Source: Candidatus Moraniibacteriota bacterium
GTDB lineage: Bacteria; Patescibacteriota; Minisyncoccia; Moranbacterales; UBA1568
Assembly: GCA_013336285.1 (NCBI GenBank)
Contig: JAAXTX010000002.1
Coordinates: forward strand, 13,730 to 77,729
Direction: 5' to 3'
Length of the DNA stretch: 64,000 bases
This document shows positions 400-61,867 of the stretch, piece after piece. Position numbers and translations under genes: made by a program. Numbering within the stretch: the first letter of the stretch is position 1; each line of letters begins with the position of its first letter. The notes under the pieces were generated by a model. The model was not told the origin of the DNA, ran no database searches, and saw only the letters and a program-made list of their open reading frames with translations.

Positions 400-1758
400 T
401 CACTTCTGAATCCCAAGGTCGAGCAGCTTCTCAAGCTTCACCTTCTTTCGGGCATCATGCGGACCGACGATCGCGAGGTTCAACTTATCATTTCGGAAGA
501 GATCCTGTGCGACACGGAGCACATCGTCAGCCGTGACCCGCTCGATCGCGCGAACTTTGTCCTTGGGAAGGACGATCTCACCACGGAGAACTTCCTGCGA
601 AACAAGGTATTCCGCCACGTCGTCGGACCCTTCGAGTCCCATCGCGAGTCCGCCCTTGATGTATTCCTTAGCCTTGCGAAGCTCTTCCTTGCCGACCTTT
701 TCGGTCGCGATCTTCTTATACTCATCGAGGATGACTGCAATCGCCTTCTCAAGGTTCTCATGCTCGACGCCGCACTGCGTAGCGATATATCCGGCATCAT
801 GAAACGACTCCACCTCGGTACGGACCCTATAGGCCAGCCCACGCCGTTCGCGGACTTCGGTGAACAACCGGCTCGACATGCCACCGCCAAGAATGACCGA
901 CAGGATACCGAGCGCGAACCGGTCGGGATGATACATGTCGTACGCGCGCACTCCGAGAAGGAAATGCGTCTGATCGGTCTTCTTCTTATAGATGAAAACG
1001 GCAGGTGTCGACTGCCGGTCGGATGCCTTCTTGAATTCCGGACGTGCTCCCGCTTTTATGACCCCGAATCGCGATTGTACCCCGGCCATCACCTTCTTTT
1101 GATCGATATTCCCCGCGATACCCACGACCACGTTGCCGCCGACATAGCCGCGTTCCATATACTTCACGAAGTCGCGTCGATTGAGCGTACGGATATTCTC
1201 TTTCGGACCCGCGATGTCCCATCCGAGAGGCGTATCGCCATAAAGATGCTCCTCCCAGAGTTCCGCGACCTTGCGCATCGGCATATCCTCGTACATGTTG
1301 ATCTCCTGGATGATCGTCCCACGTTCGCGGTCGATCTCTTCCTGGTCGAGCTTCGCGTTGAGGAACATATCGGAAACCACGTCGAGCGCGGTCTCCCAGT
1401 GATGCGCCTCTACCTTGGCATAGTATCCGGTCCACTCCTTGCTCGTGAACGCGTTGTATTCCGCTCCGATCGAATCAAGCTCGCGTGAGATGTCGAACGC
1501 CGTCGGTCGCTTCTGCGTCCCCTTGAACATCATATGCTCAAGGAAGTGCGCGATACCGTTCTCCTTGCGTGACTCGAAGCGGGACCCGACTCCGGTCATG
1601 ACGAGCACGGTCGCCGTCCCCGTCTCCGTCATCGGGGCGAGTATCACGCGCAACCCGTTCTCCAGGGTGATTTTCTTGTATTTCATAACGTTACTGATGA
1701 ATGAGGAATTATGAATCAAGGTATCATACATCGGAATCACCGTCCCCGCCACCGTCAA
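400..1758 (-). CDS. M16 family zinc peptidase (pitrilysin/insulinase-like)
   Basis: 452-aa ORF with the inverted zinc motif HFLEHMMFKGT (HxxEH) near the N-terminus and a typical M16 two-domain length. Confidence 0.9.
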   Translation of the reverse strand: MTVAGTVIPMYDTLIHNSSFISNVMKYKKITLENGLRVILAPMTETGTATVLVMTGVGSRFESRKENGIAHFLEHMMFKGTQKRPTAFDISRELDSIGAEYNAFTSKEWTGYYAKVEAHHWETALDVVSDMFLNAKLDQEEIDRERGTIIQEINMYEDMPMRKVAELWEEHLYGDTPLGWDIAGPKENIRTLNRRDFVKYMERGYVGGNVVVGIAGNIDQKKVMAGVQSRFGVIKAGARPEFKKASDRQSTPAVFIYKKKTDQTHFLLGVRAYDMYHPDRFALGILSVILGGGMSSRLFTEVRERRGLAYRVRTEVESFHDAGYIATQCGVEHENLEKAIAVILDEYKKIATEKVGKEELRKAKEYIKGGLAMGLEGSDDVAEYLVSQEVLRGEIVLPKDKVRAIERVTADDVLRVAQDLFRNDKLNLAIVGPHDARKKVKLEKLLDLGIQK

Positions 1759-2285
1759 CCCTTCTCATACAACCACACCGCGCCTTCGTTCCGGACCGGC
1801 TGCCAATTCGGAAACCGGAATCCCACGGACACCACTGTCGCCCCGGCGGGCAGTTCCGAAAGGAGCTTTTTCTCCAGCCGTTCCATCATATATGAAATCC
1901 CGTAAACGCACACGGCATCATACTCCCCCAAGTCACAGTTCCAAAAGTTCCTCCGGAATATGCGCGTTTTTCCGGACAGGCCAGCTTTCCGCAATGTCGT
2001 CCGGCTTTTCCACACGAGAAAGGGGTTGATCTCGTACCCATGGACCGTTTCGTTCTCCGCAGCGAGATCCGCCACCACCCGCCCGTCCCCCGATCCGAGA
2101 TCGAGCACCCGCTTCTTCTCCCGGATCATCGTCCGGATCAGCTCACGGTTTTCCTCCTTGCACGGCACGTACGGCGCTCCCCACGGCATCACGAGAAGCG
2201 CGGAAAGTCGGATCATTAATACAAAGAGTAGTCCGACACCGACGAAGATCAAAATTATTGGGAGAATGTATATCACATTTGTCAT
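1755..2285 (-). CDS. Class I SAM-dependent methyltransferase with N-terminal transmembrane helix
   Basis: 176 aa with N-terminal hydrophobic segment and the glycine-rich motif VLDLGSGDGR. It overlaps the peptidase gene by 4 nt. Confidence 0.65.
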   Translation of the reverse strand: MTNVIYILPIILIFVGVGLLFVLMIRLSALLVMPWGAPYVPCKEENRELIRTMIREKKRVLDLGSGDGRVVADLAAENETVHGYEINPFLVWKSRTTLRKAGLSGKTRIFRRNFWNCDLGEYDAVCVYGISYMMERLEKKLLSELPAGATVVSVGFRFPNWQPVRNEGAVWLYEKG

Positions 2286-2305
2286 TCCGGGCTTGACCCG
2301 GAATC
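2283..2305. repeat. REP-like palindrome CATTCCGGG-CTTGA-CCCGGAATC (hairpin) at the GIY-YIG/methyltransferase junction
   Basis: Perfect 9-bp arms. Related copies are at 2688-2713, 2731-2754 and, in reverse complement, inside ileS at 14041-14066. Confidence 0.6.
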
Positions 2306-2354: not shown

Positions 2355-2663
2355 CTATGTTTCGGCATCCGACTCACCTACCATCCGCTCATACAGGTCA
2401 TCCCAGTTCGAATTCCCCCTTTCGATCAAATCGATCTTCCACTGTCGTTTCCAATTCTTCAATTGTTTCTCTCTCGAAAGAGCGCTCCGCACGTCTTCAG
2501 TCTGTTCGTAATAGACCAGACTACTGACGTCATATTTCTTTGTAAATCCGTCCACAGCCTTGTTTTTGTGCTGCCACACCCTTCCAAGCAAGTCCGATGT
2601 GATTCCGATATAGAGTGTCCCATTCTTTTTACTGGCCAGTATGTATACGAAATACTGTTTCAT
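2355..2663 (-). CDS. GIY-YIG nuclease family protein (UPF0213-like, stand-alone)
   Basis: 102 aa containing FVYILASKKNGTLYIGITSDLLGRVWQHK, the GIY...YIG motif with conserved R and downstream E. Confidence 0.8.
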   Translation of the reverse strand: MKQYFVYILASKKNGTLYIGITSDLLGRVWQHKNKAVDGFTKKYDVSSLVYYEQTEDVRSALSREKQLKNWKRQWKIDLIERGNSNWDDLYERMVGESDAET

Positions 2664-2687
2664 ATTTCATCGCTTTCCATTCCCTGT

Positions 2688-2754
2688 CATTCCGGCCTAC
2701 GAGCCGGAATCCGAAGAGTTAACTTTCTGGATCCCGGGTCAAGACCGGGATGAC
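2688..2754. repeat. Two adjacent REP-like palindromes (TCATTCCGGCC-N6-GCCGGAATCC and ATCCCGG-GTCAAGA-CCGGGAT) upstream of the GIY-YIG gene
   Basis: Variants of the 2283-2305 palindrome. They lie in a non-coding gap and probably act as hairpin terminators. Confidence 0.5.
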
Positions 2755-2762
2755 GCAGAGAA

Positions 2763-2830
2763 TTATTGCAAATTCTCCACCAGATACGCCCGCAATTCAG
2801 AAATCGGAATGCTGATTTTGTCCCGTAAAT
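2763..2830 (-). pseudogene. Orphan duplicate of the glyQS 3' terminus (encodes ...ISIPISELRAYLVENLQ*)
   Basis: About 55 bp similar to glyQS 3582-3650, with a 23-bp perfect core ATTCTCCACCAGATACGCCCGCA. It translates in frame to a variant of the GlyRS C-terminus (IRIPVSELRAYLVENLKK). Confidence 0.6.
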
Positions 2831-2859
2831 GCCATAACGTAGGCCAGGATGACAAAACC

Positions 2860-3567
2860 TCACTTTTCCAACTCCTTTAATATTTCCTCGACCTTCCCGA
2901 TCGCCTCGACCCGGATTCTTTCGGCTTCTTCTTTCGAAATGAGATCGTCCTCTTTCACATTTTCCAAAAAAGCCTCGACGGCCAGAGCGACGTTCGCATT
3001 ATCTTCACTTAGAACATGCAGGTCATTCGTCTTACTATTACATTCCTCTGCTTCCGCTTCCATTCCTATCATTCTATACAAGGCTGATGCGCCATGGACA
3101 AATTCTTCATTGTTATTGTACATCCCCTGACCCTCCTTTTGAGCTGCAAGAAACCAAATAAGAAGATCTCCGACTTTTTGCCATTTTTCACTCAGGTCGT
3201 CCTTTACCTTCTCATAGTCATTTAAATATGCGTAGGTCACATTATTCGCATGGCCTATCGAATCCACCCTTCCTGCTGTACCATCTTTCTTTTCCCCCTC
3301 AAGTATCATCCGGGCAGCTATAGAAAAACAGATTTGCTGATAATCACGCACGACATCTCTTAATACTAAGATATCTGCTTGTACAAGATAGAATAAAACA
3401 TTATATGGCTTATCATTTCGCAGCTCTACAAGTGCGCCTTCGAGATTTTCTTTTATTCGTTTCTTTTCGGGATCGATTTCGGTTTCTTTTAAATTCAAAG
3501 GTTCTCCCATTGGATTCTTGTTCGGCTTTTTCTCGTTTGAAGCAAGTCCATCAAATATTTCGGTCAT
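2860..3567 (-). CDS. Hypothetical acidic protein, cargo of the low-GC insert at the glyQS 3' end
   Basis: 235-aa ORF with visibly lower GC than its neighbours and no recognisable motif. It lies exactly between the two glyQS-terminus copies. Confidence 0.5.
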   Translation of the reverse strand: MTEIFDGLASNEKKPNKNPMGEPLNLKETEIDPEKKRIKENLEGALVELRNDKPYNVLFYLVQADILVLRDVVRDYQQICFSIAARMILEGEKKDGTAGRVDSIGHANNVTYAYLNDYEKVKDDLSEKWQKVGDLLIWFLAAQKEGQGMYNNNEEFVHGASALYRMIGMEAEAEECNSKTNDLHVLSEDNANVALAVEAFLENVKEDDLISKEEAERIRVEAIGKVEEILKELEK

Positions 3568-3581
3568 ATAATCGATGATGA

Positions 3582-4994
3582 TTATTTCTTCAGATTCTCC
3601 ACCAGATACGCCCGCAGTTCCGAGACTGGGATGCGGATCTGTTCCATCGTGTCACGATCACGGACGGTGACGGTGTCCTTGAGGGAAGCATCCTCGCCGA
3701 GGCCGACCGTGTCGAAGTCTATGGTGACACAGTACGGCGTGCCGATCTCGTCCTGCCGTCGATACCGCTTGCCGACGTTTCCGTTGTCGTCATACTCGGT
3801 CGCGAAGTCGCTCTTGAGAGAATCGAATATGCCACGTGCCGCAGCCACGAGTTCGGGCTTATTGCGCAGGAGCGGGAACACCGCGACCTTGACCGGGGCA
3901 AGCTTCTTCGGGAATTTGAGCACGACGCGCGTGTCGCCCTCCTTTACCTCTTCCTCGGCATACGCGTCAGTCAGCACCGCAAGGAACGTCCGATCGACAC
4001 CGACGGACGTCTCGACGATCCACGGGACGTACTTCTCCCCCGTCTGCGGATCTCGGTACGAGAGATCGACGCCGGAAAACTCTGAGTGCTGAGTCAGATC
4101 GTAATCGCTCCGATTATGGACGCCTTCGAGTTCCTTGAACCCGAACGGGAAGTTGTACTCGATGTCCCATGCCGCCTTCGCGTAAAACACGAGATTCTCG
4201 TGCTGGTGCCACTGCAGATTCTCCGGCTTGAGCCCGAGGTCGAGATAATACTGCCAGCGCTTTTCCCTCCACTGCTCATAATAATCGGTGGCCGTATCGG
4301 GATGGACGAAAAACTGCATCTCCATCTGTTCGAACTCACGCTTACGGAAGATGAACTGCCGAGCGGTGATTTCGTTTCGGAACGCCTTGCCGATCTGCGC
4401 GATACCGAACGGGACCTTCATCCGCGTCGAATCAAGCACGTTCTTGAAATTGACATAGATACCCTGACACGTCTCGCCGCGAAGGTATGTCGGTTCCTTG
4501 TCCCAGTCCCCGGTGAAGTTTCCGAGGTTGGATTTCACGAGCAGATTGAAGCTCTTCGCTTCGGTAAAATCATGCCCGCCGCACTTCGGACACACAACCT
4601 TGCCCTTGTGTTCGGAAAAGAGTGCGTTGATCTCCTCCTCGGTCATCTTCTCGTCGGCAAATATGCCGGCTTCCTCGAGAAGATGGTCCACGCGTACGCG
4701 CGAGTGGCACTTCCTGCATTCGGCCAAAGGGTCGCTGAACCCGCCGACATGACCGGACGCCTGCCAGACCTTCGGATGCATGAAAATCGCACTGTCGAGG
4801 CCGACGATGTTCTCGTGCTCGCGCACCATCGCCTGCCACCACGCCTCGCGGATATTGCGGGCGAGTTCGGCTCCGTACGGTCCGAAATCGTACACCGCCG
4901 CGAATCCACCGTAGATCTCCGAGCTCGGGAACACGAACCCACGCCGCTTCGAGAGCGAGATCAGCTTGTCCATCAGGTTTTCAACTTGTGCCAT
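3582..4994 (-). CDS. glyQS: Glycyl-tRNA synthetase, dimeric class II type
   Basis: 470 aa. The N-terminus FVFPSSEIYGGFAAVYDFGPYG and overall architecture are typical of alpha2 GlyRS, with class II motifs present. Confidence 0.9.
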   Translation of the reverse strand: MAQVENLMDKLISLSKRRGFVFPSSEIYGGFAAVYDFGPYGAELARNIREAWWQAMVREHENIVGLDSAIFMHPKVWQASGHVGGFSDPLAECRKCHSRVRVDHLLEEAGIFADEKMTEEEINALFSEHKGKVVCPKCGGHDFTEAKSFNLLVKSNLGNFTGDWDKEPTYLRGETCQGIYVNFKNVLDSTRMKVPFGIAQIGKAFRNEITARQFIFRKREFEQMEMQFFVHPDTATDYYEQWREKRWQYYLDLGLKPENLQWHQHENLVFYAKAAWDIEYNFPFGFKELEGVHNRSDYDLTQHSEFSGVDLSYRDPQTGEKYVPWIVETSVGVDRTFLAVLTDAYAEEEVKEGDTRVVLKFPKKLAPVKVAVFPLLRNKPELVAAARGIFDSLKSDFATEYDDNGNVGKRYRRQDEIGTPYCVTIDFDTVGLGEDASLKDTVTVRDRDTMEQIRIPVSELRAYLVENLKK

Positions 4995-5115: not shown

Positions 5116-7830
5116 TTACCGAAGTCGACGTTTCCGCGCCTCCTCAAAGAAGAAGACCAACGCGGTGAAGCACCATGCGACGACCCAGTCTATCCGTTCG
5201 ATCGGCGCCATACCGAGGGCACTCTGAAGAAACGGGATACGGGTGAAAGCGAACAACATTCCAATCGAGATCCCCATACCGACGAAGACCATCGGATTCG
5301 AAAAGAAGGGCATCCCGAAGAACGAACGGGATTCGCTTCTCGATTGCAAGAGGTTCGCCATCTGGGTCAAAGCGAGCGTTACGTACGTCGCGGTCGTCGC
5401 ATGCCGATACAGCGGACCGACAGGATCGAGCTCCTCTCCGTATGACCATCCTTCACGGATAAGCACCATGAGGAACGCGACGACTCCGCCGATCGCCATG
5501 ATCGCCCCGATGGAAAGTAATCGGATTACGCCGCGCATATCCATGATTTTCCTTCCCATGGCCGGCGAAGAATGACTCTTCGAATCCGGCTCTTCCGGCT
5601 CTACGCCGAGTGCGAACGATGGGAATACGTCCGTCGCAAGATCGATCGCAAGAATCTGTACCGCCGAGATCGGAGACGGTATGTGCAGGAGAAACCCGAG
5701 CAGGACCGTAAAGAGTTCGCTCGCATTCGAGGTGAAGACGTAGTGAGTGAACTTACGCAGGTTCTCGAAAATTCTTCGTCCTTCCCGGACCGCGCCGACG
5801 ATCGACGCAAAATGATCGTCCAAAAGAATCATGTCCGCCGCATCCTTGGACACGTCGGTGCCAGTAATGCCCATCGCTACCCCGATATCGGCCTTTTTAA
5901 GCGCCAATGCGTCATTCACTCCGTCTCCCGTCATCGCGACCACCTCCCCCCCGGACTGAAGGACCGTCGCTAGACGGAGCTTCTGTTCCGGTGCGATCCG
6001 TGCGAACACGGCGCCTTTTCTCGCAGCTGCCAGGACCGCCTCATCGGACAATGTTTCAAGGGTCGTCCCGTTCACCGCGATCGGATCCATGCGTTCGGAA
6101 AAAAATCCCGCCTTCTGCGCGATTGCCTTGGCCGTCGTCTCATAATCGCCCGTCACCATGACCACGGACACGCCGAGCTGTCGGCATTCCGCTATCGCCT
6201 CGCGAATACCCTCGCGCGGCGGATCGATCATCGCGGTCATTCCGACCCAAACGAGTTGTCGTTCGGCTTCCTCCGGATACGCGTTCTCCGTCACACCGTC
6301 CAGATCACGATATGCGAAGCCGAGCACGCGGAGCGCTTGCCCGGATAACTCATCATAGATGGCTTTCACACTTGCCTTATCCGCAGGAGTAAACGGTTTC
6401 CTGACGTCCCCGTCAAACCATTCCGTCGAAAGCTCGAGTAATACCTCGGGAGACCCCTTCACATACGATCGTGTTTCGGCATTGTCATAGATGACGCTCA
6501 TCCGACGACGTTCGGACTCGAACGGGTTCTCGGCGATCTTCCGATATCCGATCTCGAAGAAATCAGGGCGCGCGTTGAATTTTCTCGCGGCGACGATGAG
6601 AGCTCCCTCGGTGGGATCGCCGGTCACGATGAACCGTCCATCCGTTTTCGAAAGGGACGCGTCGTTACAGAGCGTGCAGATACGGAATAACATCTCGGCG
6701 CCGGGAATACCCGATGGATTCACGAGTTTGCCGTCGTGAGAGAAATCTCCTTTCGGTTCATAGCCGACCCCGGATATGTCATATCGATCCGTCCCTATGA
6801 CGACTTCGGTCACCGAAAGCTCGTTCTTGGTGATGGTGCCCGTCTTGTCGGTACAGACAAAAGACACGGAACCGAGCGTCTCTACCGCGGACAATTTCTT
6901 GGCAAGGACGTTTTTCTCGAGAAGCCGCTTCATACCGAGCGCGAACGAGACCGAGAGCGCCGCCGGGAGCCCCTCCGGAACGACCGACACCGAAAGGGCA
7001 AGCGCGAGCAGGAGCGACTGATACAGCGGCATATGCTGATAGTGGCCGATCATGATGACGATGCCGCCGATTGAAACGGAAAGAAGCGCCACGCCGTGGC
7101 CGAATCGTTCCATCTTCTTCTGCAAAGGAGTCTGGGCCTGTTTGATCCCGTGCGTAAGTTCCGCCATGTGGCCGAGTTCCGTCGCCGAGCCGGTCCCGAA
7201 TATCACGACACGGGCTTCACCCGACGAGACCGACTCCCCCATGAAGACGAGGTTCTCTATGTCGCTCCGCGCTACCGTTCCGGACATCGCTCCGGTAACG
7301 CGTTTCTCCGGCACGGATTCTCCCGTAAAAATAAAACTGTTCACCTTGAAGTTGTACGCTTCGAGCACATAAGCATCGGCAGGCACGCTCGAGCCGGCAT
7401 CAAGGAACACGATATCACCCGGAACGAGGTCGGTGACGGGAATCTCGTGTTTCTCTCCGTCACGAATGACCGTCGCGGTATCGGCGATGAATGTAGCAAG
7501 TTTCTCGATTATCCGCTCCGCCTTATATTCCTGAAAGAAACCGATCAGGGCGTTGGTGAGGATGATTATCGCGATAATATTCGCATCGCGCGTCTCGCCA
7601 AGCACGAGCGCCGCCACGCCGGCCACGGCGAGAATCCAGACGAATACGTCGTTGAACTGCTTCAGCAGAAGCTTGGATGCGACAAAACGGCGTTTTGTCT
7701 CGAGGGAATTCTTCCCATGCACCCTGAGCCGGGCTGCAGCTTCCGCGCCTGTGAGCCCGTTCGCGGATGTCCGCAATTTACCAAGCATTTCGACGGCGGA
7801 AAGCCGGTAGAAAGGTTTTTCTGCTTCCAT
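5116..7830 (-). CDS. Cation-transporting P-type ATPase (Ca2+/Mg2+-type, P2)
   Basis: 904 aa with the phosphorylation motif CTDKTGTIT, the hinge motif MTGDGVNDALALKKADIGVAMG and about 10 transmembrane segments. Confidence 0.9.
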   Translation of the reverse strand: MEAEKPFYRLSAVEMLGKLRTSANGLTGAEAAARLRVHGKNSLETKRRFVASKLLLKQFNDVFVWILAVAGVAALVLGETRDANIIAIIILTNALIGFFQEYKAERIIEKLATFIADTATVIRDGEKHEIPVTDLVPGDIVFLDAGSSVPADAYVLEAYNFKVNSFIFTGESVPEKRVTGAMSGTVARSDIENLVFMGESVSSGEARVVIFGTGSATELGHMAELTHGIKQAQTPLQKKMERFGHGVALLSVSIGGIVIMIGHYQHMPLYQSLLLALALSVSVVPEGLPAALSVSFALGMKRLLEKNVLAKKLSAVETLGSVSFVCTDKTGTITKNELSVTEVVIGTDRYDISGVGYEPKGDFSHDGKLVNPSGIPGAEMLFRICTLCNDASLSKTDGRFIVTGDPTEGALIVAARKFNARPDFFEIGYRKIAENPFESERRRMSVIYDNAETRSYVKGSPEVLLELSTEWFDGDVRKPFTPADKASVKAIYDELSGQALRVLGFAYRDLDGVTENAYPEEAERQLVWVGMTAMIDPPREGIREAIAECRQLGVSVVMVTGDYETTAKAIAQKAGFFSERMDPIAVNGTTLETLSDEAVLAAARKGAVFARIAPEQKLRLATVLQSGGEVVAMTGDGVNDALALKKADIGVAMGITGTDVSKDAADMILLDDHFASIVGAVREGRRIFENLRKFTHYVFTSNASELFTVLLGFLLHIPSPISAVQILAIDLATDVFPSFALGVEPEEPDSKSHSSPAMGRKIMDMRGVIRLLSIGAIMAIGGVVAFLMVLIREGWSYGEELDPVGPLYRHATTATYVTLALTQMANLLQSRSESRSFFGMPFFSNPMVFVGMGISIGMLFAFTRIPFLQSALGMAPIERIDWVVAWCFTALVFFFEEARKRRLR

Positions 7831-7895: not shown

Positions 7896-9029
7896 TCATG
7901 TTTTTTCTCCGCGAAGCGATTCCATGAGCCGGGCGTAGAAACGGAGATTGTGCGTCGACGCGAGCCGGCTGCCGAGCGGATCGTTCACACGGAACAGATG
8001 ATGGAGATAGGCCCGCGTATGGTCCATACAAAGCGGGCAGTCACAACCGGAATCGACCGCGGAAAAATCTTCCGCAAATCCCCCGTTATTGATATTGACC
8101 GTATTGTAAAAGTCCTCGACTTTCGACTTTCGATTTTCGATTTTCGGCTGCTCATTCCATACGAACAGTCTTCCATGCCGTCCCTCGCGCGTCGGTATGA
8201 CGCAGTCGAACATATCCCAACCGGCCGCATGGCAACGGACGATGTCTTCCGGTGTCCCGATACCGAGAGCGAACCGGATACTATCTTCGGGAATGACGGA
8301 TGCCGTATGCGATACGATGTCTTCGAGGAAATTCCCTTTCGAATCGACATGACGGCCACCGAACCCATATCCATCAAAACCGATAGCGATCAACCCTTCC
8401 GCACATCGCGTCCGCAGTTCCGGGAACATCCCTCCCTGCACGACACCGAACAGGAGCGGGCGCCGTTCGTCCGAAATCCCGCGATCGGCGATCTGCCTAT
8501 CGTATTCCTCGCGACACCGTTTCGCCCACCGGATCGTCCGCTCGACCGCATCCGATATCTCACTCTCCGGCACATCGTTCGGACGCGGGTCATCGAGAAC
8601 GACCATCATGTCGACACCGAGGTCGAATTGGATCGCGATCGCCCGTTCGGGCGTAAGCATTCGTTTCGATCCGTCGAGTACCGACTTGAATTCGGCACCC
8701 TCTTCCGTTATCTTTCCCATTTTCGCATCGCGGTGTATAAGCGAGTACACCTGATATCCGCCGGAATCGGAAAGAATCGGGCCGTTCCATCCCATAAACC
8801 GGTGAATACCACCGGACCGGGCGACGAGTCCTTCGCCGGGTTGAAGCATCAGATGATACGTGTTGACGACAAGTGCGCCGATGCCGACTTCCTTGATTTC
8901 CCTCGTCGTCGTCCCCCGTACCGCGGCACGCGTCGCATCCGGCATGAAGAACGGGGTGCGGATGTCCCCAGCCCCCGTCCGAACCGTCCCCGTCCTGCCT
9001 TGTCCTTCCCTTCCTTCGATCTGAAACAT
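7896..9029 (-). CDS. tgt: Queuine tRNA-ribosyltransferase (tRNA-guanine transglycosylase)
   Basis: 377 aa with LMLQPGEG...GGYQV core motifs and the zinc site CDCPLCMDHTRAYLHHL. Confidence 0.9.
   Translation of the reverse strand: MFQIEGREGQGRTGTVRTGAGDIRTPFFMPDATRAAVRGTTTREIKEVGIGALVVNTYHLMLQPGEGLVARSGGIHRFMGWNGPILSDSGGYQVYSLIHRDAKMGKITEEGAEFKSVLDGSKRMLTPERAIAIQFDLGVDMMVVLDDPRPNDVPESEISDAVERTIRWAKRCREEYDRQIADRGISDERRPLLFGVVQGGMFPELRTRCAEGLIAIGFDGYGFGGRHVDSKGNFLEDIVSHTASVIPEDSIRFALGIGTPEDIVRCHAAGWDMFDCVIPTREGRHGRLFVWNEQPKIENRKSKVEDFYNTVNINNGGFAEDFSAVDSGCDCPLCMDHTRAYLHHLFRVNDPLGSRLASTHNLRFYARLMESLRGEKT
8114..8146. repeat. Copy of the dispersed GACTTTCGACTTT minisatellite, in-frame inside tgt
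   Basis: CGACTTTCGACTTTCGATTTTCGATTTTCGG, which encodes ...KIENRKSKVED... within Tgt. Confidence 0.6.
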
Positions 9030-11808: not shown

Positions 11809-12321
11809 TTAATCTTCCAGAAAACTCAGGATGCACTCAACCGAATCTCCGATTGCCGTATCGGTATCGAGAAATAGCTTCGGATCCGACATGATGCGAT
11901 AATCGAAGTCATTTCTCATGAAACATCTCTCCGCATCGTGATGCGCCGGATGCCGCTCCCGCGACCGGAATCTCCGCTCCCGCTCCGGTTCATCGATCCG
12001 ACAAACGACGACGCGGACGACATGTCCACTCTCGGCGATATGGGCGATCCGATCCGCATTGCCAAGACGGTCAAACGTCGCATCACAAACGATATCATGT
12101 CCACTTTCCAAAGCCTCGTCGATAAACTGGAACAGACGAACGTTCACTTCTCTGCTGAAGCGGTCGCTCTCTTGAAGCGATGTGCCGCTTTTTTGACGAT
12201 ACAATTCAATCTTCACGTCATCCTCGCAGCATCGAACGATTCCCAAGCGTTCGGAGACAATTTCGGAAAGGGTCGTCTTTCCCGAACCAGGCAACCCGCA
12301 GAATATAATGGCCCTACTCAT
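11809..12321 (-). CDS. P-loop NTPase/kinase (AAA_33-like), paralog 1
   Basis: 170 aa with the Walker A motif GLPGSGKTT at residues 9-17. It is about 45% identical to the 12915-13424 product. Confidence 0.7.
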   Translation of the reverse strand: MSRAIIFCGLPGSGKTTLSEIVSERLGIVRCCEDDVKIELYRQKSGTSLQESDRFSREVNVRLFQFIDEALESGHDIVCDATFDRLGNADRIAHIAESGHVVRVVVCRIDEPERERRFRSRERHPAHHDAERCFMRNDFDYRIMSDPKLFLDTDTAIGDSVECILSFLED

Positions 12322-12329
12322 AGAAAATA

Positions 12330-12878
12330 CTACAGCAAGCCGAGATAATCGAGACCGAGATACCCGACATTGACGTCGGTCAACTGTCCTGAACGGAGAT
12401 GTGTGCGAAACTCCGACAATGTCATCAATACCGCCTCCACATTCTCCCCATTGTCTTCCAAGCGCGGCTCGGCAATTTTTTCACAATCCGTTACGACGAA
12501 CGCATGCCTCCGGGACGACGCGTATGCATCCACCAGCAATGTTGCGACATATTGAAGCGTACCTCGATATCCGGTCTCCTCCAATAGCTCACGCGCCACA
12601 GCGACCTCCGGAGTTTCCCCTTCCTTCGCGCTGCCGCCCGGAAGTTCACACACGACCTTGGCCGGACCGGGCCTGTATTGTCTCGCGAGAATGACTTTTC
12701 CGTCCTTCGTCATCGGCAGACAACAGATCGGGTCATGCCCTCCCTGCAGATAGAAATCCGTCTCTCTCCCATCAGGGAGTCGGAACATCACCTTCTCAAT
12801 CACCCGACTGTATTTCCGAAAGACCTCTTCCCGGGAAAGTTCTTTCCATGGTTGAACTTTATCCATATTGATATTCAC
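12330..12878 (-). CDS. NUDIX hydrolase (ADP-ribose pyrophosphatase-like)
   Basis: NUDIX box GGSAKEGETPEVAVARELLEETG. Confidence 0.85.
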   Translation of the reverse strand: MNINMDKVQPWKELSREEVFRKYSRVIEKVMFRLPDGRETDFYLQGGHDPICCLPMTKDGKVILARQYRPGPAKVVCELPGGSAKEGETPEVAVARELLEETGYRGTLQYVATLLVDAYASSRRHAFVVTDCEKIAEPRLEDNGENVEAVLMTLSEFRTHLRSGQLTDVNVGYLGLDYLGLL

Positions 12879-12914
12879 TACCGAATAAAATGATTCGGAA
12901 AGAAATTACTTTCC

Positions 12915-13424
12915 TCAATTGAGAAACTTTATAATTTTCTCAACTGACTCCCCTATCGGCTTTGCCGTATCTAACAAGAGTTTCTTTCCCGGCATCAATC
13001 CATAATCAAATATATCCTCGAAAAAAGTTCTCTCCGTGCCATGATATGCCTCATGCCGAGGACGGCTGACAAACCTCCGCTTTCGTTCTTCTTCGTCCAC
13101 CCGACACACAATCACTCTTACATCCCGCCCCTCAGTCACCCATTTTACGAATTGTTCTACATTGTCCGGATGATTGAACGTCGACTCGATGATAATATCG
13201 GTTCCGTTCTTCATTGCGTCATCCGCCAAAGCGATGAGGAGTCGTATCGAATGAAATCCGATCTTCCGACTATCATCAAGACTCATTCCGTTCAGATACC
13301 CATGCAAACGCTTCTTGACCGCATCCTTATGCAAGCAGAATATGTTCATCTGACACGAAACCTCGGTCGCGAGAGTCGTCTTCCCCGAACCGGGTAAACC
13401 ACAAAATACGATGACCCTGTTCAT
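12915..13424 (-). CDS. P-loop NTPase/kinase (AAA_33-like), paralog 2
   Basis: 169 aa with GLPGSGKTT and a conserved ...VCR(I/V)DE(P/E)ER(E/K)RRF.SR.RH.A.H..ER.F..DFDY..M block shared with paralog 1. It overlaps the ileS stop by 4 nt. Confidence 0.7.
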   Translation of the reverse strand: MNRVIVFCGLPGSGKTTLATEVSCQMNIFCLHKDAVKKRLHGYLNGMSLDDSRKIGFHSIRLLIALADDAMKNGTDIIIESTFNHPDNVEQFVKWVTEGRDVRVIVCRVDEEERKRRFVSRPRHEAYHGTERTFFEDIFDYGLMPGKKLLLDTAKPIGESVEKIIKFLN

Positions 13425-16400: not shown

Positions 16401-16528
16401 AAGACGAAGTCTCCTTTCGGCGCATCCTTCTCGACGGACTTCCTAAAGATATCGTTCGCGTCCCAATACGCGAGAATTTCTTCCTCCATCTTCGGGAAAT
16501 CGGATTTGGGGTCGATTTTTCTGATCAT
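13421..16528 (-). CDS. ileS: Isoleucyl-tRNA synthetase
   Basis: 1035 aa with the HIGH-type motif PPTANGKPGLHHV, KMSKS as KMSKSKGN, and editing and anticodon-binding regions. Confidence 0.95.
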   Translation of the reverse strand: MIRKIDPKSDFPKMEEEILAYWDANDIFRKSVEKDAPKGDFVFYEGPPTANGKPGLHHVLARSFKDAVPRYKTMKGYRVRRKAGWDTHGLPVELQVEKALGLRNKQDIENIVPGDTRASVIEFNSKCKESVWEYRDLWEKLTKRMGYWVDMEHPYVTYEDSYIESVWWQFSKIAEQKDTNGNDLLYRGHKVVPYCYRCGTALSSHEVAQGYQTVKDTSAFVKFRVKPGQKIGAFTADDRTYLVAWTTTPWTLPGNVALAVNGDIEYVVGTVAAPGTAEGAESVSENLIMASGRKDAVSPDAFTVNETVLGGKLVGVAYEPLFQGTAEGADENLENAWKVYAAGFVTTDDGSGIVHIAPAFGEDDAELARANGLPTLHTVDLEGKMLKGFPGAGMPVKKKNDKNKSAVDELVVADLRERGLLLREEVYEHEYPHCWRCDTPLIYYAKPSWFIAMSTVREELTQNAESIAWVPEHIKEGRFGEWLKGAKDWAISRDRYWGTPIPVWECTGCGHRMVVDSKAKLKELSGKKPEDLHKPYIDEVWWPCECGKGAMKRTPEVLDVWFDSGAMPLAQFGFPASATDEEKNGIGEGKYFPADYISEAIDQTRGWFYTLHAIATLLHKAGVVREGNAYQNVVCLGHVLDAKGKKMSKSKGNVVDPFEMFEKYGADALRWYLYSINQPGLPKRFDEKGMRDVMNRIFRMLWNSYSFFTTYASIDGWEPRKDAKKSENILDRWILSELQALVREVDEALASYDLYSPTAKIESFIDELSNWYIRRNRKRFWKNENDGDKDAAYATLYEVLVTLSKLMAPFTPFISEEIYLNLMNCHSGLDPESKDVPGSVHLAEWPETDEGKIDEKLNVMMSQVREIVSSGLQKRAEAKIKVRQPLNEIRLKSEKYQELFDAVSDSQDRLFLERIIFEELNVKGVCFDGSTVEDIALDTEITPQLALEGEAREIIRAIQEGRKKAGFEVSDRITLGIVGKERVFDGDVEVNGFGDEIARETLATEVVRGDIADADYREIAKIEGGMFSFALKRNV
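14041..14066. repeat. REP-like palindrome copy inside the ileS coding sequence (in-frame, encodes CHSGLDPE)
   Basis: GATTCCGGGTCAAGCCCGGAATGACA is the reverse complement of the 2283-2305 element. Confidence 0.55.
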
Positions 16529-16694
16529 ATGTTTGATATCAATAGAATTATATGACGATTGCTATGACACGAAAACCTCTCATTTCCCAAAGCTACGGAT
16601 GGCGCCACCCTTGATTATCACTCTCTTGCAAAATACCATCCCAACCACACATACAGCTTATTTCAAGAATAAGCATGCCCCTTCAAGCCTAACC

Positions 16695-16722
16695 TTGACT
16701 TTTCTTTATTTTCATGTATAAT
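16695..16722 (+). promoter_or_regulatory. Near-consensus sigma70-type promoter TTGACT-N16-TATAAT
   Basis: TTGACTtttctttattttcatgTATAAT, about 55 nt upstream of the small ORF at 16778. Confidence 0.5.
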
Positions 16723-16777
16723 AGAAGTAAGTTGAAAAACTGGCTTCTTAGCTTCTTAAAAATCATAAAAATCTACC

Positions 16778-16927
16778 ATGAAAAAATTTATCGTTTCCGC
16801 ACCCCTTGTGGGAATGCTCGCCTTCCTCGGCCTTGTAGTGGCGGCGGAAGGCAGCGAGGGTTTCTTGCGAGCGTTAAGCTCGCTTGGGACCGCTTTCTGC
16901 ACTGGTCCAATAATTTTTTTACACTAG
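16778..16927 (+). CDS. Small secreted or membrane peptide (49 aa) with N-terminal signal-like helix
   Basis: MKKFIVSAPLVGMLAFLGLVVAAEGSEGFLRALSSLGTAFCTGPIIFLH. It has its own promoter and a downstream hairpin plus T7, and lies in a low-GC insert. It is below the ORF-track size cutoff. Confidence 0.4.
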   Translation: MKKFIVSAPLVGMLAFLGLVVAAEGSEGFLRALSSLGTAFCTGPIIFLH

Positions 16928-17037
16928 GTTTGAAAACTTACGGCTGCTGGTCTATGATCGGCAGTTTTTTTATTCCAGTATCTTAAAAGGCAAGTCCTCT
17001 TTTGGAAATCCGTCTTCGGATCGATCTTTCTGATCAT
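16924..17037 (-). pseudogene. Orphan duplicate of the ileS 5' terminus (MIRKIDPKTDFQK... followed by out-of-context sequence)
   Basis: About 40 bp at 16998-17040 match the ileS start region 16488-16530 at about 82% identity, with shared TTTCTGATCATAT. The first 13 codons match IleRS MIRKIDPKSDFPK. Confidence 0.5.
16941..16971 (+). terminator. Intrinsic terminator (hairpin CGGCTGCTGG...CGGCAG followed by T7)
   Basis: Imperfect stem followed by TTTTTTT, immediately after the small ORF. Confidence 0.4.
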
Positions 17038-17048
17038 ATTCGATTCGA

Positions 17049-21849: not shown

Positions 21850-22246
21850 GGGGTTGTTTAGTTTCGACAGCGAGTTCATTCAGAACCTGCAAGCCGATGA
21901 TGGGGAGTCATCGTAAAAAATCCCCACACACGATATCTGCCAACATCGTATCAAAGGTGAAGATGGCGTTCGCTAACGCGTTCTCCCCGTCTTTCGCTTC
22001 AGCTCTCGCCTAAGGGCGTGAGCCATCGGACCCCCGATGTCTGATAGGGGTCATCCGGTGTCATATCATCAGACGGACCGACAGGAGTCTTTCCTCCATT
22101 CACTTCGTCGGCCCGGCATGAAAAGAGGCCCTGGGAAGGTTTCCGTCCGCCTTTCCGCTTTCCGGGGAACCAAAGGCTGACTATGCTTGTAGACGGTTTT
22201 GGAAAAACCCGTTTGGACATGGGTGCGATTCCCATCAACTCCACAC
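21850..22246 (+). ncRNA. ssrA: tmRNA (ssrA)
   Basis: The 5' end GGGGTTGTTTAGTTTCGACAGCG matches the tmRNA 5' consensus GGGGCUGAUUCUGGAUUCGACGGG. The 3' end has the T-arm GGGTGCGATTCCCAT and the acceptor strand CAACTCC+A pairing with GGGGUUG, including the G3:U pair. An internal in-frame tag reading frame ...AFANAFSPSFASALA* ends about 21960-22012. It sits immediately downstream of smpB. Confidence 0.7.
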
Positions 22247-48068: not shown

Positions 48069-48416
48069 TCACCTCAAAACCATGACAGAGAAAAGAACAT
48101 GCGGTTTCGAATCCGCTCCGATAAGACCGGCTTGCAGCCTCCCCTTCTCACACGGGACGACCTGGACATGCCGTGTCACCTGAAATCCGCCGAAGGAAAA
48201 GATAGCCAGAAGTGCTACCGCGGTAGCAAAACGAAAAGCGGGATACGGCTGAACCGGAACAAAGGATATCCGTTTCCGCACGGCCTTCCAAGCCCATGAA
48301 AAAAATTCGACCATCGGATACCACAACAGGATAGAAAGACCGGCTACGACCGGTATCCCGATGACGGTCAACAACAAGGCAAGACAGTGGCTTAACTGAA
48401 GCATAGATGCCTCCAT
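48069..48416 (-). CDS. Possible antisense-encoded membrane protein (about 115 aa, 3 TM) inside the suf cluster
   Basis: It has a TTGACA-N17-TAGTAT promoter on the minus strand, a 9-bp-stem hairpin plus T-run just after its stop (48015-48052), and a hydrophobic product MEASMLQLSHCLALLLTVIGIPVVAG... Confidence 0.35.
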   Translation of the reverse strand: MEASMLQLSHCLALLLTVIGIPVVAGLSILLWYPMVEFFSWAWKAVRKRISFVPVQPYPAFRFATAVALLAIFSFGGFQVTRHVQVVPCEKGRLQAGLIGADSKPHVLFSVMVLR

Positions 48417-48484
48417 GGTTTGATTATTGGAAATGAACGTCTGATACACTGGAATCGGAAATATACTACTATATTATAAGTATA

Positions 48485-49054
48485 ATGTCAATACTAGAGT
48501 CTATGAGATTAATCGATATATCAAGAGACAACGAAACGACCTACCGACTCAGGGAAAACGAGCGGGCTATTTTCATGATGAACAATCGTGACGGAAAGAT
48601 AACGTTCGAACTCGCCGGGCACGGTGCCACGGCCCATGTCTTCGCGTTCTATGAGGGAACGGATGCCGAACGGTTCGCGCCCCGTATCATACAAAGGCAC
48701 CTCGCGTCGGGAACGGTTTCCTCATCGACCGTGCGGGCGCGACTCGACGGTTCATCCTTACTTCGTTTCCGAGGTCTCGTGGATATCGCGAAGGACGCGA
48801 CCGGATCGGACGCGCGGCAGAACTGCCGGATACTTCTTCTCTCCCCAGACGCCACAGCCCATGCCGGACCGGAACTCGAAATCTCGACGGATGATGTGAC
48901 ATGCTCCCACGCCGCCTCGATCGCGCCGCCCGATCCGGACCAACTGTATTTCCTCGCCACACGCGGACTGGAAACCGACAAGGCGACAGCGCTGCTTGCC
49001 GACGGATTCTTCCGAGACGCCCGCGACGAGATGGAAAGACTCTCCCAATCATAA
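48485..49054 (+). CDS. sufD: Short SufD-like protein (C-terminal SufBD core only)
   Basis: 189 aa matching the SufB/D C-terminal region (...LLLSPDATAHAGPELEISTDDVTCSHAASIAPPDPDQLYFLATRGL...). The N-terminal beta-helix half present in canonical SufD is missing. Confidence 0.6.
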   Translation: MSILESMRLIDISRDNETTYRLRENERAIFMMNNRDGKITFELAGHGATAHVFAFYEGTDAERFAPRIIQRHLASGTVSSSTVRARLDGSSLLRFRGLVDIAKDATGSDARQNCRILLLSPDATAHAGPELEISTDDVTCSHAASIAPPDPDQLYFLATRGLETDKATALLADGFFRDARDEMERLSQS

Positions 49055-58530: not shown

Positions 58531-58607
58531 AAAAATGTTGTCCTCGCTTTCCAGTTTTTTCTTCACGATCTCGAACTCATTCTCGGCTTCCTTGAGTTTC
58601 TCAAAAT
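58531..58607 (-). pseudogene. Orphan duplicate of the xseB 3' terminus (encodes ...EKLKEAENEFEIVKKKLESEDNIF*)
   Basis: About 57 bp match 60024-60085 with 4 mismatches, with perfect cores ATCTCGAACTCATTCTCGGC and TCCTTGAGTTTCTC. It is in frame with a diverged XseB C-terminus. Confidence 0.6.
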
Positions 58608-58625
58608 GAAATGGCAACTACTCTT

Positions 58626-59732
58626 CTACTTCGATATGGCCATACCGCCTTCTTCAACTTCCGAAGAAATTACCTCATACGTTTCCGGATTGTAGTAGAT
58701 CCGATCATATATCTCAAACGGACGGCCGATAAATCCTCCGTTCTTTTCTGTCGCGATATTCAGATCCCACTTATCATAATACGATATGTAATGCCCTTTC
58801 TTATCTTCTCCGAGAGTGATCGTGAAACGCCCCATTACCCTAGAGAAATCGTCGACGAACAACTCATTTCCACCACCCTCTTTCAGTTCTGATACCAAGT
58901 CGCTTACCGTTTGTTTTTCAAACAGTTTTGGAAAAAAATCAACGATTTTGTAATAATATTTATCCACGTCAGATCGAGCCGGTTTGTGATCCGAGATCCC
59001 GAAAGTTCCATGTTTCTGAGAAAGACCAAGGTAGAGCCTCCACGCATCATAGCGTTCCGGTCCCTGCTTTTCATAGAATGTCGACGCGCCCATTACCAAA
59101 TTATCGAGAAACAACATAGAATGAGCTTCGCTAAAATAGGTTACCGGGCGAATACTTCTCTCAACCAGTTCACTGAGACCGAACTTGTATACCGACCGCT
59201 GTTCCTCTGTTATCCCTTCTTCAAACATTTCCGATCTCGCACGATCGCGCTCAGCGAACTTTCCATCCGCTTTCTGCATAACGTTCACACCAGTGAAATA
59301 TGCCCCGTAGAGAGGAAAAAGACTCACGAATCCGACCATGACCCGATTCATGATTCGATCAACCTTCTCTCGGTGTTTCTTGATTTCTTTTCCATAGAGC
59401 CTCGCTCGCGCTTCAATTAACTCCCGCTCTTCCTGAACTTCAGGATGCCTCTCGAGTTCGGAAATCTGAAATTCGACAACATCGGAAAGTCGGCTGGCGG
59501 GATGCCTCTCAAGCCATGAGACAAGATTAGCTCTGAGTGTCGCGACCTGGTTCGAATCATCCGAAGATGGCACACAATCATCGAGCTCTCGCCAGTCCCC
59601 GATTACCTTCGCCGCTTCCAGCATCCTTTCACTGATTTTCTTATCAAAATTCTCTTGCCGTTCCGGAAAATCCTCCTGCGGAACACTGGGTTTTTCCGGT
59701 ACAGCAAGAGACGGCATAAACGATTCCTTCAT
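58626..59732 (-). CDS. Hypothetical protein, cargo of the low-GC insert at the xseB 3' end
   Basis: 368 aa, lower GC than neighbours, no motif recognised. Confidence 0.5.
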   Translation of the reverse strand: MKESFMPSLAVPEKPSVPQEDFPERQENFDKKISERMLEAAKVIGDWRELDDCVPSSDDSNQVATLRANLVSWLERHPASRLSDVVEFQISELERHPEVQEERELIEARARLYGKEIKKHREKVDRIMNRVMVGFVSLFPLYGAYFTGVNVMQKADGKFAERDRARSEMFEEGITEEQRSVYKFGLSELVERSIRPVTYFSEAHSMLFLDNLVMGASTFYEKQGPERYDAWRLYLGLSQKHGTFGISDHKPARSDVDKYYYKIVDFFPKLFEKQTVSDLVSELKEGGGNELFVDDFSRVMGRFTITLGEDKKGHYISYYDKWDLNIATEKNGGFIGRPFEIYDRIYYNPETYEVISSEVEEGGMAISK

Positions 59733-59734
59733 AC

Positions 59735-59890
59735 TTATTCCTTATCATTCGTTTCCTCAGTGCTATCACGACACGCCTCCCTAAAATCGGTCTCAACCTC
59801 TGCGATAGATTCTTCAAATTCGGAAAAAAGGTCTCGTATTTTTTGCTCTGCCTCTTTCCGTTCTTTGTCCGTGAGTTCCGATTTGTTCAT
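59735..59890 (-). CDS. Possible small acidic protein (51 aa) coupled to the 368-aa cargo gene
   Basis: MNKSELTDKERKEAEQKIRDLFSEFEESIAEVETDFREACRDSTEETNDKE. Its stop is 2 nt before the next ATG. Confidence 0.3.
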   Translation of the reverse strand: MNKSELTDKERKEAEQKIRDLFSEFEESIAEVETDFREACRDSTEETNDKE

Positions 59891-60008
59891 AAAACACGTA
59901 GTATCTTCTTCGCAAAACTTATTTCCACACTCACTTATTCTGATCCTTCCTTTGGCAAGAAAGAAAAACTAATCTTTGCACTACCCTCTCCTTTCTACCT
60001 CCTACTCC

Positions 60009-60221
60009 CTATTCCTCCCCTTCCAGTTCCTTCTTCACTATCTCGAACTCATTCTCGGCCTCCTTGAGTTTCTCGCGGCTTTCCTTCACGAGTACCGCAC
60101 CTGCTTTCACCTTCGCGAGCCCCTCCTCGACATCTACCTCCTCTTGACTCTCGAACCAGGCGACGATTTCCTCCAATTTCTTCAGCGACTCCCCAAGCGA
60201 CTGCTTCTTTTCCTGTGGCAT
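60009..60221 (-). CDS. xseB: Exodeoxyribonuclease VII small subunit
   Basis: 70 aa with LEEIVAWFESQEEVDVEEGLAKVKAGAVLVKESREKLKEAE, the XseB coiled-coil pattern. Confidence 0.8.
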   Translation of the reverse strand: MPQEKKQSLGESLKKLEEIVAWFESQEEVDVEEGLAKVKAGAVLVKESREKLKEAENEFEIVKKELEGEE

Positions 60222-61836: not shown

Positions 61837-61867
61837 AGAAAAGAGAAATTTAAATTGACAATCACGG

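Follow-up and report, generated by a model that had tools for sequence, protein, structure and literature searches.

Elements such as e14 and phage 21 in icd, the dusA-specific islands and the streptococcal integrative and conjugative elements (ICE), integrative and mobilizable elements (IME) and cis-mobilizable elements (CIME) are inserted by an integrase and restore the end of their target gene. Bacteria of the candidate phyla radiation (CPR, or Patescibacteria) have tiny genomes and few classical mobile elements, and lineage-specific gene gain is poorly documented in them. Here we describe duplicated gene ends around low-GC inserts, chiefly at the 3' end of the glycyl-tRNA synthetase gene glyS, in a 64,000-nt stretch of the genome of a Candidatus Moraniibacteriota bacterium (the window; assembly GCA_013336285.1, contig JAAXTX010000002.1, positions 13,730 to 77,729). 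These scars are a sequence-level record of gene gain in a CPR clade without an element-encoded recombinase. They also warn that low-GC cargo between direct repeats of a gene end is not in itself a sign of an integrase-driven island, which is how a preliminary description of the window had read them.

Several described systems resemble this locus. For rhs genes, displacement of the C-terminal end has been proposed to occur by homologous recombination via circles (Jackson 2009, PMC2935791). For effector-immunity arrays of type VI secretion systems (T6SS), homology-facilitated illegitimate recombination was put forward (Kirchberger 2017, PMC5361080), a process described in natural transformation (de Vries & Wackernagel 2002; Prudhomme 2002; Meier & Wackernagel 2003; as cited in PMC5361080). 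The minimal mobile elements (MMEs) of Neisseria (Saunders & Snyder 2002; Snyder 2007; in the definition given in PMC3082526) are variable cassettes between conserved genes. Ssn proteins are site-specific, single-domain GIY-YIG nucleases of about 94-110 aa whose genes have hairpin repeats (SRMs) on their 5' and 3' sides; Ssn cuts incoming single-stranded DNA (ssDNA) a few nt upstream of the repeat and modulates natural transformation in Neisseria (PMC11893778).

The duplicated 3' end of glyS

The intact glyS gene encodes a glycyl-tRNA synthetase (GlyRS) identical to P0140 (NTW13491.1) of Candidatus Moranbacteria. A repeat search paired 62 nt at the end of this gene (3584-3645) with 2762-2823, at 77% identity and a spacing of 822 nt (Table 1). 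Both copies contain the exact 23-nt core ATTCTCCACCAGATACGCCCGCA (2772-2794 and 3594-3616), which is bordered by mismatches at either side. As the preliminary description had noticed, the second copy (the orphan) reads as a glyS C-terminus. It comprises 19 codons and a stop: its translation from 2822 to 2763 is DKISIPISELRAYLVENLQ, and the genuine C-terminus is EQIRIPVSELRAYLVENLKK, each followed by the stop. The local-alignment score of the pair is 56, compared with 19.9 +/- 2.3 (maximum 29) for 300 Markov shuffles (z = 15.6). When the termini of all window genes were scanned against the flanks outside them, xseB (94), glyS (56) and ileS (40) stood out; the median of the background scores was 20 and their 95th percentile 25.

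A fourth high-scoring pair (score 46, 53 nt), formed by the 5' ends of two genes (at 12321 and 13424), was rejected. These genes encode full-length paralogous AAA_33 kinases (45% identical) and show no displacement scar. The two zeta-toxin-like paralogues lie around a NUDIX gene (11809-13424, minus strand) directly downstream of ileS, and the first has the lower GC content (0.46).

The insert between the two glyS ends is AT-rich, with a GC content of 0.414 (2831-3581), where glyS has 0.573 and the window as a whole 0.532. Its only open reading frame (ORF) encodes the acidic 235-aa protein noted previously, here called cargo235 (isoelectric point 4.67), which is identical to HGA31_00470 of a Candidatus Moranbacteria metagenome-assembled genome (MAG). 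Cargo235 is a lineage-restricted ORFan. Profile searches found no protein-family match, the phage, plasmid and IMG/VR collections held no match, and a fold search returned generic helical bundles only. Exact-sequence contig look-ups with the window GlyRS, the cargo and P0001 returned no record. A degenerate pattern for the peptide ELRAYLVENL matched 25 loci in a metagenome scan, none of them related to the glyS locus, and matched nothing in viral contigs.

The flanks of the two copies indicate which end is native. In the relative L116 (related loci are given as L numbers), the genuine glyS stop is followed by TTCTCTGTGTCATCCCGGG...CCCGGGATCCAGAAA. The stop of the window orphan is followed by TAATTCTCTGCGTCATCCCGGTCTTGACCCGGGATCCAGAAAG, the same flank (TAA-TTCTCTG-hairpin repeat), and the genuine glyS stop of the window is followed by 14 nt and then the cargo. 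Because the native flank of L116 matches that of the orphan, the orphan and its flank represent a glyS end of the native type, and it is the working end that goes with the cargo. The suggestion that the insert carries a replacement gene end is borne out to this extent, and the flank comparison supports an architecture at glyS in which a replacement end arrived together with cargo and the native end was displaced. On the cargo side, the junction consists of a truncated SRM hairpin and a 15-nt filler that resembles nothing in the part of glyS upstream of the repeat. The arm of the truncated hairpin, GTCATCCTGG, also occurs 3' of the cargo in L081, there as part of a complete hairpin.

The duplication is genuine and not a chance match. 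As the window comes from a MAG and the locus varies between strains, a metagenome assembler might have made a chimera of two strain variants. Four separately assembled JGI samples (L085-L088), however, show the same orphan and junction as the NCBI MAG (the orphans of the window and L086 are 97% identical), and the xseB orphan described below recurs in two further assemblies (L120 and L121). The junction also has no shared k-mer that could mislead an assembler. As independent assemblies carry the same scars, an assembly artefact, which the preliminary description had named as a possible undoing of its reading, is effectively refuted, and we give it a negligible probability.

Relatives and other gene ends

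Seven arrangements were found between glyS and a conserved M16 peptidase gene, in lineages whose GlyRS proteins are 92-95% identical (81% aa identity for L001). The window has glyS, cargo235, the orphan, SRM repeats, a GIY-YIG gene, a methyltransferase gene and M16. In L081-84, glyS is followed by a gene for a 239-aa homologue of cargo235 (66% aa identity), an SRM, GIY-YIG, Bro-N and M16, without an orphan. L085-88 have glyS, the 239-aa homologue, the orphan, an SRM, GIY-YIG, four further genes and M16. Unrelated genes take the place of the cargo in L116 (glyS, SRM, a 321-aa gene of GC 0.345, a 327-aa gene, Bro-N, M16) and in L117 (glyS, a 225-aa gene of GC 0.364, a 327-aa gene, M16). The 327-aa gene has a faint TrmB match on record for its L116 orthologue. 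Finally, the site is empty in L114 and L123, which have the closest GlyRS (glyS, a spacer of about 115 nt, methyltransferase, M16), and in L001, where M16 follows glyS directly. The cargo is thus an insertion, since the closest relatives lack it at this site. Such sites had been anticipated in the preliminary description, which expected the GIY-YIG gene to follow glyS there; what follows is the spacer and methyltransferase gene or M16. The finding that it had named as a refutation, cargo without an orphan in all related genomes, is borne out only in part: L081-L084 have cargo alone, L085-L088 have both and others neither.

No glyS-end orphan was found in 40 GTDB glyS loci of other species (0/40). 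The peptide of the orphan is not the C-terminus of any GlyRS in a set of 120 cluster representatives and 31 cluster members, so no donor or ancestral allele is identified among the sampled sequences. The orphan sequence has more in common with the glyS tails of L117 and L114 than with the tails of the genomes that carry it. It also shows a few changes at otherwise invariant residues (E to D, Q to K and R to S), as would follow a release from selection.

Identity between relatives is mosaic along the locus. The window and L086 are 96.8% identical over 2900-2470, a block that spans the last 40 nt of the cargo, the orphan, the SRMs and the 5' two thirds of the GIY-YIG gene, and 86.3% identical in glyS (Fisher p = 7e-11). 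The window and L081 are 90.5% identical over the glyS end and the 5' part of the cargo (3800-3441), compared with 85.1% in the rest of glyS (p = 0.008). In the middle of the cargo, L081 and L086 are 83% identical, and either is 71-73% identical to the window (73% for L086). This mosaic of identities among the window, L081 and L086 indicates that segments of the locus have been exchanged among lineages by homologous recombination.

The interval also contains a 102-aa single-domain GIY-YIG gene with SRM hairpins on either side, three in all. The pattern GTCATYCCGG...CCGGRATC has four matches in the window, where 0.01 are expected, and these match the NTS/SRM consensus CGTCATTCCCGCGMAVGCGGGAATCYRG (PMC11893778). 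Gene and repeats together are probably an Ssn/SRM system, with a predicted Ssn-family ssDNA nuclease in a CPR bacterium. A sequence search found no relative of the GIY-YIG protein with a solved structure. The scars at glyS thus adjoin a system of a type that, in described cases, acts on transforming DNA. In L081 (6721-6770, aligned with 6411-6460 of L116), the cargo lies precisely between glyS stop and SRM, where Ssn is predicted to cut, and 5 nt (TCTGT) are missing there. The SRM loop of L081 has an extra 20-nt mini-hairpin, as in L116. No SRM is present near the xseB or ileS scars, so the SRM is at most a local contributor.

Two of the window's SRMs coincide with coding sequence. The start codon of the methyltransferase gene lies inside SRM-c (2279-2290, GGAATGAC), and the N-terminus of the protein is unlike those of the orthologues in L114 and L123, where the gene is directly 3' of glyS. 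Judging by this difference, SRM-c appears to supply a new start for the gene. The fourth SRM lies in frame in ileS and coincides with a 13-residue insertion relative to the solved isoleucyl-tRNA synthetase (IleRS) 8c8v, which is reminiscent of the in-frame palindromic elements of Rickettsia. In L114, a perfect 35-nt direct repeat (1486-1520 and 3334-3368) occupies two intergenic regions around an orotidine monophosphate decarboxylase gene and a 263-aa gene; the site is between an ATPase gene and a 252-aa gene, upstream of glyS, and the repeat may be another cassette boundary.

The recurrence of the architecture at xseB and ileS, claimed in the preliminary description, holds for both genes (90% and 81% identity), with the amendment that the ileS duplication is of the 5' end. 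At xseB, the insert encodes a 51-aa protein and a 368-aa protein (cargo368). The window's arrangement, with an identical inner boundary, is found in L120, and homologues of the insert occupy the same position in L120 and L121. In L121 the order is xseB, a gene for a 208-aa methyltransferase, orphan-1, a 53-aa ORF, a 371-aa ORF and orphan-2, so that three tandem xseB 3' ends (4033-4102, 4707-4776 and 6120-6189) part two cassettes. Orphan-1 begins 27 nt further in than orphan-2, and with its downstream flank it corresponds to the genuine xseB end and flank of the window. The methyltransferase ORF enters orphan-1 out of frame and stops there (ending in VSSRS), which indicates that the junction cut off the cargo's own end and stop. 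In each genome the genuine and orphan copies of xseB share lineage-specific states, and this covariation points to gene conversion between the repeats. L120 (3690-5236, compared with 61622-62500 of the window) has an xseA without the N-terminal HRDC domain, and an HRDC-only ORF and the neighbouring 401-aa gene are inverted downstream of its xseB cassette, which suggests a rearrangement beside the insertion site.

Cargo368 has a few homologues and a sub-threshold match to AbiC (E = 0.0027); its AF2 model is of low confidence (pLDDT 58), and the phage collection held no match. A homologue with 35% identity lies 3' of a LemA gene (188 aa) in another lineage (L122), with a 40-aa ORF between them and without repeats; the cargo368 family is therefore not bound to xseB. 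Apart from the AbiC match, neither cargo235 nor cargo368 has detectable similarity to toxins or immunity proteins.

At ileS, a 467-nt insert separates the gene from a displaced copy of its start. The insert contains a 49-aa ORF with a signal-peptide-like N-terminus (MKKFIVSAPLVGMLAFLGLVVAAEG...) at 16778-16927 on the plus strand, opposite to ileS, and neither an Rfam family nor a T-box was found in it. A joint query with cargo368, the 51-aa protein, XseB and a 178-aa protein returned cargo368 homologues only, so the ileS scar is known from the window alone. The M16 gene has been affected twice in relatives. L117 has a 41-nt copy of the M16 start region (7300-7340, compared with 8636-8676) and a 1.3 kb insertion upstream of M16. 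L085 has an 82-nt copy (25 nt of leader and 57 nt of coding sequence; 2636-2717, compared with 6280-6361) and an insertion of 3.6 kb with four genes. Both insertions end in the same 327-aa gene, and their inner boundaries differ.

The independent events number six, at four unrelated targets: the 3' end of glyS, the 3' end of xseB twice, the 5' end of ileS and the 5' end of M16 twice. In all six the displaced copy retains the native outer flank and the working copy adjoins the insert. Repeat lengths are about 41-82 nt, inner boundaries vary even within one target (xseB, M16), and the three window inserts are all low in GC (0.41-0.45). Short direct repeats are more frequent in the window (4.7 per 100 kb) than elsewhere (1.2-1.75), a difference given no weight as the numbers are small and mixed with tandem paralogues.

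These data bear on the proposal that the inserts are non-autonomous, CIME-like elements integrated at specific sites by a tyrosine or serine recombinase acting in trans from elsewhere in the genome, with the replacement end as attP. Repeats that bracket low-GC cargo at conserved gene ends, the restored gene, the exact 23-nt core at glyS, the tandem accretion in L121 and the empty sites all agree with such integration. Pfam, however, detected no integrase, recombinase or transposase domain in the 48 window ORFs, insert included (RecO is present in the window), and no recombinase was found among the precomputed domains and gene tables of six related glyS arrangements or in the xseB relatives L120 and L121. 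An autonomous relative sharing the att site was not found. The four target sequences are unrelated. No boundary is fixed, as the xseB events differ by 27 nt and the M16 repeats are 41 nt and 82 nt long, and the junction in L121 runs through a cargo ORF. The 23-nt core, proposed as the att site, sits in mid-repeat, away from the boundary that an att crossover would define. Added to the absence of the glyS-end orphan from the 40 loci of other species and of structure beyond shuffles from the repeats, these points lead us to set the site-specific reading aside as improbable; it retains some probability as only 64 kb of the genome is in view. The secondary structure of the repeats is no better than that of shuffles (z from -1.4 to +1.2), and the repeats are therefore not attC-like. 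The features of an integron gene cassette were likewise not found, neither an attC-type fold in the repeats nor an integrase in the 48 window ORFs.

Table 1. Positions in the window of the duplicated gene ends, their inserts and neighbouring features. The glyS, cargo235, GIY-YIG, methyltransferase and M16 genes and the glyS orphan are all on the minus strand.
Feature	Position	Strand	Remarks
glyS, intact (GlyRS, 470 aa)	3582..4994	-	Pfam tRNA-synt_2b and HGTP_anticodon
Repeat copy within working glyS (last 19 codons and stop)	3584..3645	-	Adjoins cargo directly
Cargo235 gene (235-aa acidic, all-helical ORFan)	2860..3567	-	GC 0.41; sole ORF of insert
Truncated SRM hairpin repeat GTCATCCTGGCCTACG, 5' arm and loop only	2838..2853	-	Cargo side of junction
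15-nt filler TTATGGCATTTACGG, truncated hairpin to orphan	2823..2837	-	Putative illegitimate junction
Orphan glyS 3' end (19 codons and stop)	2763..2822	-	Out of frame with cargo; sequence comparison
SRM-a	2730..2754	-	Immediately past orphan stop and TTCTCTGC
SRM-b	2686..2711	+	Pattern search
Single-domain GIY-YIG protein (102 aa)	2355..2663	-	Pfam GIY-YIG 5e-17, residues 3-77
SRM-c	2281..2305	+	Contains methyltransferase start codon
Methyltransferase (176 aa)	1755..2285	-	Pfam Methyltransf_25; 67% identical to 173-aa protein of L114
M16 peptidase	400..1686	-	Conserved outer border of variable interval; relatives carry Peptidase_M16; start regions aligned
Fourth SRM, in frame inside ileS	14031-14055	-	Peptide CHSGLDPESKDVP
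ileS 5' end, working copy of repeat	16489..16530	-	81% identical to 16998-17039
467-nt insert upstream of ileS	16531..16997		GC 0.41
Orphan ileS start (ATG and 12 codons)	16998..17039	-	z = 8.1; 11 nt past stop of upstream gene
Orphan xseB 3' end	58541..58602	-	90% identical to 60013-60074; z = 31.7
Insert 3' of xseB	58603..60008	-	GC 0.45; 51-aa ORF (59890 to 59735) and 368-aa ORF (59732 to 58626)
xseB	60009..60221	-	Pfam Exonuc_VII_S; terminal repeat 60013-60074

The window contains no tRNA gene. The sole RNA gene found with Rfam and ARAGORN is a tmRNA (21850-22246, plus strand; tag peptide ANIVSKVKMAFANAFSPSFASALA). In a separate region (48069-49054), a SufD-like ORF (48485-49054) matches the SUFBD_core profile over positions 96-232 only, and a 126-aa membrane ORF, encoded on the other strand, separates it from sufB. 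The sufD gene may here be truncated or split.

Origin of the scars

The differences between working and orphan copies show where much of their divergence arose. Over the six pairs there are 11 at the first codon position, 6 at the second and 27 at the third (binomial P = 0.003 for so few at the second), and this bias implies that much of the divergence arose between functional alleles in different lineages rather than after duplication in place. A staggered break or a switch of replication template could copy 40-80 nt of the target during insertion and leave the outer copy to decay. The resemblance of the xseB orphan to the genuine copy of the same genome fits such in-place duplication, as do the orphan changes at conserved residues, which suggest relaxed constraint. 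The third-position bias (27 of 44 differences) and the closeness of the glyS orphan to the tails of other lineages speak against it, no known insertion mechanism yields target duplications that vary from 31 to 82 nt, and gene conversion accounts for the likeness within genomes. Duplication in place is therefore highly improbable.

The second explanation is the circle model put forward for the identical architecture of rhs loci (Jackson et al., PMC2935791). Recombination between the repeats would excise the cargo with one repeat as a circle, and a RecA-mediated, Campbell-type crossover in roughly 60 nt of homology would reinsert it in a relative. The repeats do interact, as gene conversion between genuine and orphan copies indicates; the tandem array of three xseB ends and two cassettes in L121 is of the expected form, and the 23-nt identity block in mid-repeat is a plausible crossover tract. 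The first repeat-flanked cassette would, however, still require an illegitimate event, and 40-60 nt at 77-90% identity is a poor substrate for RecA. The model also leaves unexplained the truncated cargo ORF of L121 and the truncated SRM and filler at glyS. No circular form or cargo-only contig was seen, and viral, plasmid and metagenome scans gave nothing related. As a full account the circle model is possible and rather unlikely; a variant of it may account for the spread of cassettes after a first event.

The explanation that we favour, with a confidence only slightly better than even, is terminal displacement by homology-anchored, one-sided recombination with DNA of a close relative, for which no dedicated recombinase would be needed. 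At glyS the proposed sequence of events is as follows. DNA from a related member of the Moranbacteria arrives, bearing the 3' part of glyS fused to the 235-aa ORFan. The incoming segment would pair with the resident glyS, and a homologous crossover would provide the anchor. The far end, which has no homology, would break inside an SRM hairpin repeat. An illegitimate joint with 15 nt of filler would then connect it to the resident chromosome, at a point 57 nt upstream of the stop of the resident glyS. The product would be an intact glyS with the incoming end, then the cargo, then the last 19 codons of the resident gene as an orphan on its native flank (SRM repeats and GIY-YIG gene). A mirror version, in which the orphan and its flank are incoming and anchored on the GIY-YIG/SRM side, would be indistinguishable in outcome. 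In general, one crossover in a conserved gene or its flank would be combined with one illegitimate joint about 31-82 nt inside the shared terminus. Later, ordinary homologous recombination in the flanks would carry the module between lineages and reshuffle it, and the short repeats would convert each other. Architecture, empty sites, mosaicism, varying junctions and the lack of recombinase genes in the sequences scanned are observations; we infer natural transformation as the entry route, the illegitimate nature of the far-end join and the choice of the incoming block. Experiments have shown that Saccharibacteria are naturally competent (PMC10633639 and its preprint PMC10187176), and Patescibacteria are reported to carry genes for homologous recombination and comEC (PMC12455944).

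Several points weigh against terminal displacement by this route. Homology-facilitated illegitimate recombination is experimentally orders of magnitude rarer than homologous recombination (PMC5361080), and six scars were found in roughly 100 kb of clade sequence. Because this seems a high count for a process so rare in laboratory experiments, a more specific, unrecognised mechanism keeps a non-trivial probability. The narrow range of short repeats could also point to such a mechanism, yet longer repeats would be unstable and shorter ones undetectable. Microhomology, which such a joint would be expected to show, could be seen only by comparison with parental donor and recipient sequences. The route also assumes that this organism is transformable, and the genes in view are those of the 64-kb window. 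A duplication, as opposed to a deletion, results only if the illegitimate joint comes to lie within the sequence that recipient and donor share. The circle model, with its Campbell-type crossover, accounts equally well for gene conversion and tandem arrays. Lastly, L081, with its cargo but without an orphan, need not represent a clean insertion of independent origin, as a later deletion between two SRM arms could have produced it.

A broader proposal, which we regard as speculative and would not expect to hold in full, is that this clade routinely gains ORFans at the borders of conserved genes by a transformation-linked pathway without a recombinase. Ssn would trim ssDNA, partly at SRMs, into one-ended substrates, which would be incorporated by one homologous and one illegitimate joint; the terminus repeats would then serve as portable homology sites for excision, conversion and movement. 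If this were true, natural transformation in uncultured bacteria would leave a genomic footprint that can be counted, in the form of gene-terminus orphans. If it were general, orphan counts in MAGs would measure transformation-driven gene flow in uncultured lineages, and terminal displacement would extend past polymorphic toxin loci.

Comparison with known systems

Like e14, phage 21 and the ICE-type elements, the inserts are bracketed by direct repeats of a gene terminus, leave the gene intact and can accrete in tandem. They differ in that no recombinase was found in the sequences scanned, the boundaries are variable, the targets are unrelated and one cargo ORF has been cut at a junction. They are also only 0.47-3.6 kb long and hold 0-4 ORFan genes.

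The glyS-M16 interval resembles a Neisseria MME, in the sense in which PMC3082526 defines it, as two conserved genes enclose differing whole-gene cassettes without mobility genes, exchanged by homologous recombination in the flanks. Hairpin repeats of the NTS/dRS3 type are also present at the site. Unlike MMEs as described there, the interval has duplicated gene termini and an added illegitimate step.

The resemblance to the Ssn/NTS system (Chenal et al. 2025, PMC11893778) lies in the 102-aa GIY-YIG gene and its flanking repeats CGTCATTCC...GGAATC, with C after the palindrome and GTC before it. This putative system, recognised from its sequence features, is a neighbour of the duplication and a possible contributor, not the duplication itself.

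Homology-facilitated illegitimate recombination likewise combines one homologous anchor with one illegitimate joint and uses no element-encoded functions. That process is known mainly from laboratory selections, whereas here it is deduced from scars in natural genomes, and its outcome is a short duplication of the anchor terminus.

The closest parallel is with the orphan arrays of rhs, T6SS and contact-dependent growth inhibition (CDI) loci. There too, incoming DNA anchored in a conserved gene brings a new end and downstream genes, and the old end is shunted downstream with a short conserved piece, in serial arrays of variable lengths and without an integrase. The present scars share with terminal displacement the native outer flank on the displaced end, the serial arrays (L121) and the mosaic tracts in the anchor gene and flanks. 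Unlike those loci, the genes affected here are housekeeping genes (glyS, ileS, xseB and the M16 peptidase gene), the replaced end is functionally equivalent and has no toxin tip, 5' ends are displaced as well, the cargo consists of ORFans and the host is a CPR bacterium. As polymorphic toxin and immunity genes define the rhs/CDI/T6SS class and no family-level similarity to them is detectable in this cargo, the locus works like rhs/CDI/T6SS displacement and is not a member of it. The type of event is thus already known, and what is new here is displacement at the termini of housekeeping genes in a CPR clade, with ORFan cargo.

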